Of a stretch of DNA of 64,000 bases, positions 757 to 61,521 are shown piece by piece. Origin of the DNA: a virus. The stretch covers positions 96,001-160,000 of IMG/VR virus record IMGVR_UViG_3300037755_000305; one strand, written 5' to 3'. The notes under the pieces are model-generated. The model saw nothing but the letters and a program-made list of their open reading frames with translations, was not told the DNA's origin and made no database searches. A program made the translations under genes and the position numbers. The stretch's first letter is position 1; every line of letters begins with the position of its first letter.

Positions 757-1314
757 TTAGACTGTCCAGTTTAGTCTAGCTGCAATACCTATATCCAAGG
801 GAATGTTTGTTTTTTCCTCGTCACTGGAAGAGAAAACAACAGTGTCGAAAGTTATCTCTGTTCCCTCAAAATCATCAGCACCAGAATAAGAACTGCCGCA
901 ACCAGGATTCACGTAAGCAATGGTCACATGAGGCTTGTATTCTGGATAGTCAGATTCGTGGTCTACCTCATCCCATAGAAGTTTTTGTAGATCGCCCAAA
1001 TCTTCAGACTCTACAGATATTTTGACGACATCGTAATCATCGTTTTCGAAAATAGACACTTTCCCAAGAGTAGCCCTAATCTGTGGCTTTCCCTGCAACA
1101 AGTCAATTACTTGTTGTGGTGCGTCATCTACAATGCCGTACAAAATGGTTATGTGGGGGTTGTCTTCGCGACCTTGATTTCCATCCTTATCGAAAATTTC
1201 TTCGTCAGGGATGTTCGTTTTTCCCCAATCCATTATCCGCTTAGCTATGTTTTTAGGAATGTTGACCTGCGTAGAGGCGTAATCATAATCCGCCGTTATC
1301 CACCGGAGTTTCAT
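757..1314 (-). CDS. 2H phosphoesterase, Acb1/T4 57B-like
   Basis: two HxT motifs (PHITILYG, YKPHVTIAY); DYPEYKPHVTIAY resembles the Acb1 C-terminal HxT block. Confidence 0.8.
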   Translation of the reverse strand: MKLRWITADYDYASTQVNIPKNIAKRIMDWGKTNIPDEEIFDKDGNQGREDNPHITILYGIVDDAPQQVIDLLQGKPQIRATLGKVSIFENDDYDVVKISVESEDLGDLQKLLWDEVDHESDYPEYKPHVTIAYVNPGCGSSYSGADDFEGTEITFDTVVFSSSDEEKTNIPLDIGIAARLNWTV

Positions 1315-1679
1315 TTTTGTCTCCTACGATCGTGCGGAAAGACATACCGCATCTCAGTTTTCTTTGTAGATACACCTAGAGCTTTCAATATCTTTCGTTT
1401 GGTTCTCAAGTGTGGCGCTCTCCTGCCTTGGGAAATTAAACGTACAGTCCTCCACTCAAGGTTTGCTTCGCGTGCAAGCATTCTAAGAGAGTAACCATTC
1501 TTTACTGTAAGATATCGTACTCGATTAGGGTATGGAGGAACACCTTGTCTCTTGCAATGCGGACAAGGGTCATTCTTGGTGAATACTGGAACATGCCACC
1601 GTAAACAATCGGAGCACTCGATTCCGTGCTCAATTGTTGCGCGGTCCATATAAATCCGTCTTGAACGGTTAAAGGTCAT
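1311..1679 (-). CDS. zinc-ribbon plus XRE/Cro-type HTH DNA-binding protein
   Basis: CSDC...CPHC followed by YSLRMLAREANLEWRTVRLISQG...KILKALGV. Confidence 0.7.
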   Translation of the reverse strand: MTFNRSRRIYMDRATIEHGIECSDCLRWHVPVFTKNDPCPHCKRQGVPPYPNRVRYLTVKNGYSLRMLAREANLEWRTVRLISQGRRAPHLRTKRKILKALGVSTKKTEMRYVFPHDRRRQK

Positions 1680-2852: not shown

Positions 2853-3554
2853 TTAGACTTCCTGTTGTGCCCTCGCTGCCTCAATCTGGGCGGGATCTTC
2901 GGGCGGTTCGAAACCGTCTTCTACCACGTCAGATTCCACCTTGGCGGAAATTTCTGACAAACACGCGAGAGCGAACCGCTTTAGCGGTCCATCACTATCT
3001 GTCTGAGAGATAATATAGGTAAGATCGTGACTGGAAAGCTCACCCTGCATGATGCGGAATTCCGCTACTGCGTCTCGCTCCGTGATATCTTTAGATTCGA
3101 CTCGAAGAATGGTAGACTTAACGCGATTGTTCACAGGATCGGACATGCCTTCGGGACCCTGCGGGTTCAAGGGGTTTGCTGCGGGGGTGTACTGATTTTC
3201 CAACGTAAGAGTTCGCTGGGTGGCTTCCGCCTTGTTGGAGAAATCCGAAAGATTCAGGCGTCTGGCCTCTTCAGCGGCGTCCGTAGTCTTCAGTTCCGCG
3301 AGAGCCTCGTTTGGGTCAACGAGAGCCAGAATTCCCTTGTTAAGGAACTGGCGAAGTTCATTGCTCTGTGTGATGATATCAGGAGACAGGGTGTCCGTCA
3401 AGCAAATGGGAATCCACGTTCGGGGAATGTTACGCGGCACAGCCTTACCGTGAGCAGTAACGAACGTCAGCACGATGTGGCCCATCGGGCGGGACGTATT
3501 CTTGACGTAGATTTTCTTTCCGTCATTAAGTAGTGAGTCAAGATCGAGCGACAT
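2853..3554 (-). CDS. hypothetical protein, probably virion-associated
   Basis: 233-aa ORF in the late operon with an AGGAG RBS. Confidence 0.7.
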   Translation of the reverse strand: MSLDLDSLLNDGKKIYVKNTSRPMGHIVLTFVTAHGKAVPRNIPRTWIPICLTDTLSPDIITQSNELRQFLNKGILALVDPNEALAELKTTDAAEEARRLNLSDFSNKAEATQRTLTLENQYTPAANPLNPQGPEGMSDPVNNRVKSTILRVESKDITERDAVAEFRIMQGELSSHDLTYIISQTDSDGPLKRFALACLSEISAKVESDVVEDGFEPPEDPAQIEAARAQQEV

Positions 3555-56519: not shown

Positions 56520-56936
56520 CTAACCAGAGGGACAGAATACTTGTCTAATCTTATCAATGATATCGCTCGTGTGTGTCTGCGAGCCAACCTCCAGACAAAA
56601 GGTCTGTTTAGCGTACTCTCGGCCGAGTACCTCGTCTGGGGAATAGTCTGGACCCTTCACTAAGACATCCGGACAAATCTCTGATAGCAAGCGCTCCGGC
56701 GTATCTTCGCTGAAGATGCGTACTTCGTCAACACACTCCAAAGCATCCAGAACTTCGTATCGTGACTGTTCATCGTTGATGGGGTTGCGGCCCTTATGGC
56801 GTCGGAAGCTTTCATCCGAATTAAGACCTACAATGAGCCAATCTCCGTAGTTCTTGGCAGCAACCAAATACCTAACGTGACCTACATGGAGTAGGTCGAA
56901 ACAACCGTTTGTGAATACTACTTTTTTATTGCTCAT
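56520..56936 (-). CDS. RfaE domain II-like sugar-phosphate nucleotidyltransferase (heptose-1-P adenylyltransferase family)
   Basis: VFTNGCFDLLHVGHVRYL..A..GD.LIVGLNSD.S..KG..PI...LVKG.DY. Confidence 0.85.
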   Translation of the reverse strand: MSNKKVVFTNGCFDLLHVGHVRYLVAAKNYGDWLIVGLNSDESFRRHKGRNPINDEQSRYEVLDALECVDEVRIFSEDTPERLLSEICPDVLVKGPDYSPDEVLGREYAKQTFCLEVGSQTHTSDIIDKIRQVFCPSG

Positions 56937-58024: not shown

Positions 58025-58534
58025 ATGCCTATCAGATTTCGCATATCCCCTCTAGCGCTTGCCCCTGGGGGAGCATTAGTTAGCTACACAGGTACGGATT
58101 TACCTCTAGCACAGACATTGCAATATCCAAGAATTCCAACATTGAACTCGGGGTCTAGCTTAATCGCTACAGTTTCTCCATTGACTTTTCGGTCAAACAT
58201 AAACGAGGACGGAACGTTCCCTATTAGACCTGCCAATTCCGTTAGCCAAACTAGCAAGTTGTTGGTGCATGTTTCTACTTCTGGGTCCGCTACAGTTCAT
58301 CATGCGGAAGACAACACCTACCAAACAGGGTTCAGCCTCGCTTACGGGTTGTACGTATCAATACAGGGAACTTCCATGCATGAAGACATATTCGAAAGGG
58401 CACTTAACGATACACGTGGGTCTCAGTTCAAGGCAAACCTACAAGAACTAATAGCGCGAAGCATACTTGAAGTTCGAAACCAATCCGGTGCTCCTATGAG
58501 CCCGTCAGAAATAGGCTCCTACATAGCGCCCTGA
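58025..58534 (+). CDS. paralog of 7032-7571
   Basis: FERAL...QFKANLQELIARSIL...MSPSEIGSYIAP; start placed at ATG 58025. Confidence 0.7.
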   Translation: MPIRFRISPLALAPGGALVSYTGTDLPLAQTLQYPRIPTLNSGSSLIATVSPLTFRSNINEDGTFPIRPANSVSQTSKLLVHVSTSGSATVHHAEDNTYQTGFSLAYGLYVSIQGTSMHEDIFERALNDTRGSQFKANLQELIARSILEVRNQSGAPMSPSEIGSYIAP

Positions 58535-58896
58535 TCTGCACTGACTTTCTCCCGTATCGCTTTTAGAGTACGGGATTCTTCTACGGCAGCCTTACGTCCC
58601 TCGGTAAGCGCTTTGACCGCTGCTTCAAGATCGCAATATCGAGCGTCGTGCTCAAGGCGATACTGTTCCATATAGCGTATCTGTTCCTTTAGGTGAAAGA
58701 TACACGCGGATTGGTCTTTGTGGACCGTCTCCCCGGAGTTAGCAGTGTGCAATTCTCCCATGTTTCCGCCACATGCGTCACAAAACCCGTACTGGGTATT
58801 GGAGCAGACCCTAGTCTCGTGATCTGCTGATTGCCACGAATCCTCGCTATCGTAGGTCTTGCCACAGTGCGAGCATAGAATGTAGTGGCTCGTCAT
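58519..58896 (-). CDS. zinc-finger plus coiled-coil hypothetical protein
   Basis: CSHC...C...CDAC...C..H. Confidence 0.65.
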   Translation of the reverse strand: MTSHYILCSHCGKTYDSEDSWQSADHETRVCSNTQYGFCDACGGNMGELHTANSGETVHKDQSACIFHLKEQIRYMEQYRLEHDARYCDLEAAVKALTEGRKAAVEESRTLKAIREKVSADQGAM

Positions 58897-59120
58897 GCCT
58901 GGATGTACTCCTTGGTAGGGTCCCCGTCCGGGCGACGCCTACCAGTCTCGCAGTGGCGGAACCAACCTTCCGGTTCTTTGCCTTCCTCAATATCCTCTAA
59001 GGCCGCGACCGCAGCCTCCTTGGAATCGTATCACCAGTTGTCGAAGACATTGAATCCGTCGGTTTTAATGATGCGGTACTTTCCCAGCAGCATTCCGCAA
59101 ATCTCATACCAAATCTTCAT
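58893..59120 (-). CDS. 75-codon gene with in-frame TGA at codon 30 (candidate selenoprotein, or nonsense pseudogene)
   Basis: MKIWYEICGMLLGKYRIIKTDGFNVFDNW*YDSKEAAVAALEDIEEGKEPEGWFRHCETGRRRPDGDPTKEYIQA; GGAG RBS; terminal TGA overlaps the next ATG; fills a gap in a tightly packed operon. Confidence 0.7.
58993..59024 (-). promoter_or_regulatory. candidate bacterial SECIS hairpin
   Basis: GAGGCUGC-GGUC-GCGGCCUU stem-loop with the loop starting 20 nt after the UGA. Confidence 0.5.
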
Positions 59121-59301
59121 CTATGTTCTCCATGTTATCGCGAATAGAAGCAGCCTTGTTCCTGGCGTGTCCTAGATCATCAGCCTCAATGCGGATCCAG
59201 CTCTGTCCCCACTCTTCAGTAAGCCCGCCCTGCCCTTCGAAAAAGTCTCCCTCTTTTACGAAGACATTTGGGTACTTCAAAAGTGCGTAGTATTTACCCA
59301 T
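59104..59301 (-). CDS. hypothetical protein
   Basis: small ORF overlapping both neighbours. Confidence 0.6.
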   Translation of the reverse strand: MGKYYALLKYPNVFVKEGDFFEGQGGLTEEWGQSWIRIEADDLGHARNKAASIRDNMENIDEDLV

Positions 59302-59497
59302 TGACCGGGCCATACATCTCATTCATGTAGTCTATGACATCGAGAACCGACGCGCTAGAAGCCACATTGGTTCCACGCGCTACCAATTCTTCGTAAATGT
59401 CTCCACCTGACACACCATAAGGAAACTTGGAATGGAATTCCTTGTCACTCATGATCTCTCGAACAACAGGTCCCCAAGGACGGTTTTCGTCAGACAT
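59294..59497 (-). CDS. hypothetical protein
   Basis: small ORF overlapping both neighbours. Confidence 0.55.
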   Translation of the reverse strand: MSDENRPWGPVVREIMSDKEFHSKFPYGVSGGDIYEELVARGTNVASSASVLDVIDYMNEMYGPVNG

Positions 59498-60288: not shown

Positions 60289-61521
60289 TTACCCCTTCAC
60301 GCACAAGACTTGTTTAAGCGTATGCTTGATTTCCACCAAAGACTCTTGAGCCTTCATCACACTGTCAATAGACTTATACGCACCAGGGGTTTCATCCAAA
60401 ACTCCAATGTCTTTTCTACATTCCACGCCCTCGGTAGCAGCAATGTGGTCGTCCAGCGTAAATTGTTTCTTGGCCGCAGAACGACTCATCACTCTCCCAG
60501 CACCATGCGAACACGAGTCGAAGCTTTCCGGGTTGCCCTTGCCCTCTACAATGAACGACTTAGCGCCCATCGAACCCGGGATGATTCCCATGACACCCTT
60601 GCGAGCGCACACAGCTCCCTTGCGGGTCAACCACACGTTGTCTCCGTAGTGGTTCTCGCGAGTAGTGTAGTTGTGGTGACAGTTGACGGCAACATCGTGC
60701 GTCAATAGCTTCTTCTGCGGAACTCCGCCCTCACGCTTCAGCGCGTCGAAAACCTGAACCACCATGAGATCACGATTGATGCGAGCAAAGTCCTGCCCCC
60801 ACTCCATAGCCTCGATGTAGTCATCGAAATACTGAGTGCCTTCCGGCAAGTACGCCAAGTCACGGTCCGGGAGGTGAATGAAATGCTTCGACATCTCTTC
60901 CTTCGCCAAATCCGTGAAGTATCGGCCGATAATGTTACCCGGACCACGGCTTCCCGAGTGTAGCATCAGCCACACGCGATCAGCCTCGTCCAAGCAAATC
61001 TCGATGAAGTGATTCCCGCTGCCCAGCGTACCTAGCTGCAAGGAAGCCGCCTTGTGGAAGATAGACTTGTGCTTCGCCAAAATGTTCTGGTAGCGAGCGT
61101 CCAACTTGTTGGCCCATGCTAGAGCATGCGTCTTCGGAACATCGCCCGAAGCGTATCCACCCTTGTTGTGGGAAGCCCCCTTGACAGCGCCAGTCGGAAC
61201 AGCGTGCTCGATAGCCGAACGCCAGCCCTTCAAGTTTGTCGGAAGGTCAGTGGACTCCATGCCCGTCCGTACGGCGACCATGCCGCAGCCAATATCGACC
61301 CCGACCGCAGACGGTATAATAGCCCCTTTCGTTGGAATGACTGAGCCTACAGTGGCCCCAAAACCAAAGTGGCAATCAGGCATGACGGCGACGTGCTTGT
61401 GGATGAACGGCAGAGATGCAACATTACGCAACTGTCCCAGAGCGGCTTCTTCGACCGGAACGCCCTTCGTGAATGCCTTGATCGGCACAAGGCCACCCTG
61501 ATAAACGTCAAAATCACTCAT
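60289..61521 (-). CDS. rtcB: RNA-splicing/repair ligase RtcB
   Basis: MPDCH.G.GATVG, AVGVDIGCGM, LGTLGSGNHFIE, MLHSGSRG, CHHNY, SCSHGAGR, DETPGAYK. Confidence 0.95.
   Translation of the reverse strand: MSDFDVYQGGLVPIKAFTKGVPVEEAALGQLRNVASLPFIHKHVAVMPDCHFGFGATVGSVIPTKGAIIPSAVGVDIGCGMVAVRTGMESTDLPTNLKGWRSAIEHAVPTGAVKGASHNKGGYASGDVPKTHALAWANKLDARYQNILAKHKSIFHKAASLQLGTLGSGNHFIEICLDEADRVWLMLHSGSRGPGNIIGRYFTDLAKEEMSKHFIHLPDRDLAYLPEGTQYFDDYIEAMEWGQDFARINRDLMVVQVFDALKREGGVPQKKLLTHDVAVNCHHNYTTRENHYGDNVWLTRKGAVCARKGVMGIIPGSMGAKSFIVEGKGNPESFDSCSHGAGRVMSRSAAKKQFTLDDHIAATEGVECRKDIGVLDETPGAYKSIDSVMKAQESLVEIKHTLKQVLCVKG

Follow-up and report, generated by a model that had tools for sequence, protein, structure and literature searches.

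Cellular genes and two poxviruses are known to use the insertion of selenocysteine (Sec), and we found no report of it for a bacterial virus. The closest bacterial system to the locus described here is the fdhF gene of Escherichia coli (E. coli), in which an in-frame UGA at a Cys-homologous position is followed, within the open reading frame (ORF), by a stem-loop, the SECIS element. This element has a lower helix and an upper stem that carries a GGUC loop. In complexes of SelB with SECIS elements, the G and the U of the loop are the bases bound by SelB. The closest viral systems are the glutathione peroxidase (GPx) homologs of the molluscum contagiosum and fowlpox viruses, which are selenoproteins made from a viral gene by the Sec machinery of the host (PMC8310308). 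In that review of viral recoding, published in 2021, these two poxviruses are the only ones listed for selenoproteins. Bacterial SECIS elements are diverse and are poorly covered by models (PMC12013277). Phages are not mentioned in two recent surveys of bacterial selenoproteins, PMC12013277 among them, and a full-text search of the literature found no phage-encoded selenoprotein.

Here, we analysed a stretch of 64,000 nucleotides (hereafter the window), which covers positions 96,001 to 160,000 of the 184-kb IMG/VR virus record IMGVR_UViG_3300037755_000305. An earlier note, made from the letters of the window alone, had proposed that a small gene missing from the list of ORFs encodes a selenoprotein. 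We conclude that the phage most probably encodes a selenoprotein here, through a gene of bacterial type in which SelB of the host would insert Sec at the UGA of codon 30 to give a 75-residue product. The proposal is supported by a Cys column in the homologs, by relatives that carry TGA, by a covarying hairpin linked to this TGA, and by the use of TGA as a normal stop elsewhere.

The phage gene resembles fdhF in several respects. In both, the UGA occupies a Cys-homologous position, a stem-loop within the ORF starts about 11-12 nt after the UGA, and the peptide that follows the Sec is constrained by the RNA. Both have a GGUC loop, at a distance of 18 nt downstream of the UGA in fdhF and of 20 nt in the phage. 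However, the upper stem of the phage element has 8 bp, no bulged U is predicted in it, and the gene belongs to a bacterial virus and encodes a small protein from an uncharacterised family. The two elements have no sequence homology and the phage SECIS model R1 does not find fdhF; the likeness is architectural. The fdhF query consisted of 42 nt of the SECIS region. It matched fdhF at an identity of at least 99% in 5413 E. coli genomes and, when folded, gave the lower helix, the upper stem and the GGUC loop at 18 nt, so that the E. coli element cited in the earlier note is real. The poxvirus genes share with the phage gene a viral origin and the use of host Sec machinery. However, they belong to eukaryotic viruses, are captured host GPx genes and have a eukaryotic SECIS (PMC8310308), whereas the phage gene has a SECIS of the bacterial, in-ORF type and is a member of a phage-confined family.

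Results

The candidate gene is a single frame of 75 codons (stop included) on the minus strand, and it is translationally coupled within a tightly packed row of genes (Table 1). The TGA of codon 30, in the context D-N-W-(UGA)-Y-D, is its sole in-frame interruption. Direct reading of the frame downstream of this TGA found no in-frame ATG, GTG or TTG. The frame, its GGAG and ATG, the overlap of its stop with the next ATG, the absence of a restart and the hairpin had all been described in the earlier note, and each of them was found in the sequence. The downstream neighbour is a Cys-rich ORF of 125 amino acids (58519-58896, minus strand), which is also the next gene in the relatives L003 and L004. 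The upstream neighbour RtcB is found in the window and in L001, L003, L004 and L022; it is conserved within the clade of the window only, and a synteny comparison found no neighbour that is conserved across the whole protein family. The row of small genes is flanked by the RtcB gene and by a cytidylyltransferase-like gene (56520-56936, minus strand).

Table 1 Features of the candidate selenoprotein locus in the window.
Feature	Position	Strand	Basis
75-codon selenoprotein candidate gene	58893..59120	-	Frame reading, homologs, AlphaFold2 model
Shine-Dalgarno GGAG, 7 nt ahead of ATG (59118-59120)	59128..59131	-	Read directly
UGA in frame at codon 30, putative Sec codon	59031..59033	-	Same-column TGA in 24 other homologs, TGT/TGC in 18
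SECIS upper hairpin (predicted), 8-bp stem and GGUC loop	58999..59018	-	Covariation, invariant GU, folding
Whole predicted two-tier stem-loop, lower helix (59022-59028 with 58988-58995) and upper hairpin	58988..59028	-	Minimum free energy fold
ATGA overlap of the candidate gene's TGA (58895-58893) with the downstream ORF's ATG (58896-58894)	58893..58896	-	Sequence
Upstream 72-aa ORF, overlapping the start of the candidate gene by 17 nt	59104..59322	-	Tightly packed minus-strand gene row
RtcB RNA ligase gene, upstream neighbour	60289..61521	-	PF01139, E 3e-124

The record that contains the window is estimated to be 69% complete. This uncultured giant phage is clearly tailed, as it has genes for a major head protein, a portal and a large terminase. 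The identity of this terminase to its counterparts in jumbo phages of Proteobacteria does not exceed 34%, and the host is not assignable from it. A database search found no near-identical DNA in cultured phages. Several large genes with collagen repeats or of tail-fibre type occupy the segment 7588-20054 on the minus strand of the window. The antisense of these genes is open for hundreds of codons, which gives rise to spurious long ORFs and to one false match for a TGA followed by a hairpin.

A protein search with the read-through product returned four full-length homologs that are 71-78% identical to it, and all four have W-C-Y at the site. The earlier note had suggested W-C-Y in similar small phage proteins; this holds for these four, for a protein of Caulobacter phage CcrBL9 and, as regards the Cys, for most of the best full-length family members (see below). 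Taken alone, the TGT or TGC codons of the four homologs would be compatible with the window having acquired a plain nonsense mutation. This picture was changed by searches at the DNA level, in which the codons of the relatives were taken independently of gene calls. They gave 46 distinct homologous stretches, the window included, in which the codon at the Sec column is TGA in 25 (the window counted), TGT or TGC in 18, TTA (Leu) in two and GAC (Asp) in one. Apart from the TGA forms, homologs mostly have Cys, and not Trp, at this column. The 24 TGA homologs besides the window are distinct phage or metagenome sequences with protein identities of 35-78%. The nearest of them are L019, L021 and L022, which are 78%, 74% and 68% identical, and the set extends to sequences that are only 35-50% identical to that of the window. 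The contigs that carry TGA forms have G+C contents of 49-68%.

This distribution bears on the possibility that the gene of the window is a pseudogene, whose TGA would have arisen by nonsense mutation or through faulty assembly. A change from TGC or TGT to TGA involves a single base, and the close relatives L001-L003 have TGT or TGC at the column. However, the same TGA is shared by 24 further independent contigs over the identity range given above and with G+C contents of 50-68%, the frame is open and selected after the TGA, and the tree described below shows that the TGA forms are not one recently spread clone. We therefore regard a pseudogene as extremely improbable. A base-call error is excluded by the occurrence of the TGA in the 24 independent contigs. 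Close relatives with TGC or TGT and lacking the hairpin had been named beforehand as a sign of a simple nonsense mutation; as L019, L021 and L022 carry TGA, the codon in the window is not an isolated mutation of this kind.

A profile search against 1.8 billion representative proteins assigned to the family at least 1573 clusters (at 50% identity) with E ≤ 0.001. Among the best 150 full-length representatives out of the 1573 clusters, 120 (80%) have Cys at the column. The other 20% or so of these 150 lack it, and for this reason the residue is not indispensable; judged from these sequences, it would be important though neither universal nor required. The two close relatives with Leu (L004, codon at 3082-3084, and L025, codon at 1340-1342) have TTA, which is one base from TGA, and their hairpin is partly decayed; these two have therefore kept the gene and lost the residue. 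Members of the family also occur in cultured jumbo phages of Caulobacter, Brevundimonas and Sinorhizobium, where they are annotated only as hypothetical proteins. The proteins of Caulobacter phage CcrBL9 (gp257c), of Sinorhizobium phage Phosso (XYS97833.1) and of the Brevundimonas phages share with the candidate protein the pattern [WY]-C-[YF] and a C-terminal module with G-R-(R/T)-R, but Cys replaces the UGA of the window gene; the translated sequences read W-C-Y in CcrBL9 and Y-C-F in Phosso. A scan of 185,579 prokaryotic species genomes (one genome per species) gave a single marginal match, on a contig of 1.6 kb, from which we take the family to belong to phages.

Some Cys-form relatives in the clade of the window have an inserted FeoA domain. 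It was identified in L039 (PF04023, E 1.3e-12; 1156-1632, plus strand) and is also found in L035, L037, L043, L044 and L055. The insertion is located between the helix that follows the Cys and the C-terminal module EPEGWFRH..GRRRPDGD.

Comparisons among the TGA forms gave a median dN/dS of 0.25 for the part downstream of the UGA. For the window compared with L019, L021 and L022, the values after the UGA are 0.12-0.20, with dS above 1. The C-terminal segment of the candidate protein has the motif EPEGWFRH..GRRRPDGD..EY, in which G-R-R-R-P is invariant. The purifying selection and the invariant G-R-R-R-P indicate that the downstream half is translated in the same frame as the upstream half.

TGA is an ordinary stop elsewhere, as the earlier note had stated: it terminates 24 of the 100 ORFs of at least 200 amino acids in this genome, and also the candidate gene itself and several of its homologs. 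Stop codons are recoded in some phages, and TGA could accordingly be imagined as a sense codon throughout this genome (Trp or Gly, as in tables 4 and 25). The stops just listed contradict such a code, no suppressor tRNA was found, and the 184 kb hold a single site at which a TGA is joined to a hairpin; we give genome-wide recoding practically no weight. In a scan of our own for a second site of this type in the 184 kb, no convincing candidate was found, and the phage SECIS model R1 found none.

The predicted hairpin downstream of the UGA comprises the strand GAGGCUGC (59018-59011), the loop GGUC (59010-59007) and the strand GCGGCCUU (59006-58999). Its stem has eight pairs, of which two are G.U. 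The hairpin starts 12 nt after the UGA and its loop 20 nt after it. The minimum free energy of the 48-nt stretch is -18.7 kcal/mol (z = -3.2 against shuffled sequences). Below the hairpin, a lower helix completes a two-tier stem-loop, and similar lower pairings are predicted in several relatives; the covariation figures given below concern the upper helix. A scan of window positions 58850-59150 against Rfam returned no family up to E = 10.

The 48 nt from the UGA onwards align without a gap across all 25 TGA forms. In this alignment, G25 and U26, the second and third bases of the loop, are invariant (25/25). The loop is GGUC in 19 of the TGA forms and AGUU in four; in the remaining two it is shifted but still contains GU. 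By analogy with fdhF, these two invariant bases would correspond to the G and U that SelB binds. A stem of 5-8 bp with a GGUC or AGUU (NGUN) loop 20 nt past the UGA was present in 22 of 25 TGA forms versus two of 21 non-TGA forms (Fisher 1e-7, shared ancestry uncorrected), and the GU of the loop in 25 of 25 versus five of 21. The two non-TGA forms with an intact hairpin are the nearest Cys relatives of the window. In distant Cys forms, A-V is replaced by A-L, A-I, A-W or A-T and the hairpin is absent.

The eight-pair helix is paired in 83% of cells over the 25 TGA forms. Its covariation score is 0.483, compared with 0.188 ± 0.028 in shuffled alignments (none of 500 as high) and with at most 0.158 in controls with slid partners. 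The inner five pairs were recovered independently by RNAalifold. The hairpin overlies the codons of a conserved peptide, A-A-V-A-A. As the GCN codons in this stretch favour pairing, we examined the pairs formed by codon third positions. Columns 21 and 30, which are both third positions, have all four bases on each side and five pair types, and they are paired in 22 of 25 forms (permutation p < 1e-5). Columns 18 and 33, also both third positions, are paired in 22 of 25 forms (p = 3e-5). On this alignment, such a pattern at third positions could not come from selection at the protein level. A purely phylogenetic artefact is unlikely, since the stems are diverse, with statistics that are uncorrected for relatedness. 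In the covariance analysis that the earlier note had suggested, every TGA form has the hairpin, its stem covaries, and distant Cys forms have lost it. The refuting conditions of the note that were examined here all turned out in favour of its proposal.

With a hairpin that is a real and selected RNA structure, and with phage ORFs that can be as short as 29 codons, the UGA might also be taken as a true stop. The gene would then encode a 29-residue peptide, and the hairpin would regulate the downstream part or the next gene, through pausing, mRNA stability or termination-reinitiation. However, no in-frame start follows the UGA, purifying selection acts in the same frame on the next 45 codons of TGA forms (dN/dS 0.25), and this part aligns over its full length with uninterrupted Cys forms. 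Moreover, the hairpin is gone once the codon is that of Cys, as only two of the 21 non-TGA forms keep it. A true stop is, on these grounds, very unlikely.

The phage has 31 tRNA genes in a block at positions 160094-183849 of the record (G000), just past the end of the window (G000 160000). None of the 31 has a UCA anticodon and none scored above the tRNA-Sec threshold. No selA, selB or selD gene was found in the 184 kb, which represent 69% of the estimated genome. Furthermore, no tRNA-Sec was found in five related phage records. A complete 157-kb relative with the TGA form lacks it as well. With no phage-encoded Sec machinery in the 184 kb, decoding would depend on the host. During infection, SelB of the host with Sec-tRNA(Sec) would recognise the hairpin downstream of the UGA, by its G+C-rich 8-bp stem and its GGUC loop with the invariant G-U. 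SelB would then deliver selenocysteine to the ribosome at the UGA of codon 30, and the full 75-residue protein would be made. We infer that the decoding depends on SelB, that the residue is Sec rather than another one, and what its chemistry would be.

The same hairpin could instead help a standard near-cognate tRNA (for Trp or Cys), or a Cys-charged tRNA resembling tRNA-Sec, to read through the UGA; the full-length protein would then be made with no selenium involved. This explanation also predicts a hairpin tied to the UGA and a translated downstream part, and it agrees with the Sec machinery not being found in the 184 kb of phage sequence. We nevertheless consider it unlikely. In 80% of relatives, it is Cys and not Trp that aligns with the UGA. 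The GGUC loop has its invariant G-U, the contact of SelB, at a distance similar to that in fdhF. In addition, a tRNA with a UCA anticodon is missing from the 31 phage tRNAs.

Two tRNAs of the block, tRNA-Lys(ttt) and tRNA-Lys(ctt), have an unusual length of 87-88 nt. The RtcB gene adjoins this large block, which suggests a function in tRNA repair.

The product of the candidate gene was modelled with confidence by AlphaFold2 from an alignment of 41 sequences (mean pLDDT 85.6, pTM 0.73). The modelled protein can be described as a small beta-beta-beta-alpha fold, in which residues 4-9, 15-20 and 25-31 form strands, residues 34-42 form a helix and the tail is less ordered. Sec30 is located at the end of the third strand in this model, just ahead of the sole helix. 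In redox proteins, the catalytic Cys or Sec is often found at such a strand-to-helix position. This site, together with the Cys in about 80% of full-length relatives, suggests one residue that is redox-active, nucleophilic or metal-binding; tentatively, the most likely role of Sec30 would be that of a single redox-active or nucleophilic selenol.

Searches of Pfam and PHROGs gave no family for the candidate protein, and a profile search of the PDB gave no match. Foldseek found nothing at E ≤ 0.001 in the PDB and BFVD, and a feature search of a protein atlas returned only unnamed viral clusters. The best Z score obtained with VIA-align was 4.4. Structures of the UPF0339 / DUF1508 (YegP-like) family, which has the strand-strand-strand-helix order in common with the modelled phage protein, gave Z scores of 4.4 (3bid), 4.2 (2k7i), 4.2 (6q2z) and 2.8 (2k49); three of them are among the top four, at scores well below a meaningful Z. 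However, the two families have no sequence or profile match, and UPF0339 / DUF1508 has no known conserved Cys.

A maximum-likelihood tree of the family was computed with the Sec/Cys column masked; it is based on 77 columns and is partly resolved. The TGA label changes at least six times on this tree (5-7 times across bootstrap trees). The backbone of the tree consists of TGA forms, and the Cys forms are derived clades on long branches. The window belongs to a well-supported clade of 11 that comprises four Sec, five Cys and two Leu forms. This arrangement suggests that Sec may be old in the family and that it was replaced several times by Cys, after which the hairpin would decay and the SECIS-coded peptide would be free to change. 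The direction of the change between Sec and Cys is one that we infer from a short, partly resolved tree.

Discussion

Beyond this single gene, we think it likely that tailed phages encode selenoproteins of their own. They would belong to a phage-confined family of at least 1573 clusters (at 50% identity) in which Sec was present early and Sec and Cys were exchanged repeatedly, perhaps in step with the ability of the current host to make Sec, and whose Sec forms are systematically missed by gene callers. If this is true, phages draw on the SelB/tRNA-Sec pathway of their hosts in infection, and their genomes contain selenoprotein families that are split or dropped by annotation pipelines. In addition, the family would provide a short natural SECIS (about 20-40 nt), of which many variants occur in nature, and a test protein of 75 residues. 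As Cys-form relatives are present in cultured Caulobacter and Sinorhizobium phages, the function of the family is open to experiment. Moreover, the TGA form would predict a host that inserts Sec, which would be useful for assigning hosts to uncultured phages.

A separate gene of the window could also hint at the host. The segment 56926-58044 (minus strand) encodes an FGE-sulfatase domain (PF03781) and a PEP-CTERM-like C-terminus, in which VPEPS is followed by a hydrophobic stretch and an R. The G+C content of this region, 0.42-0.44, is lower than that of its surroundings, and the gene may therefore have been acquired recently.
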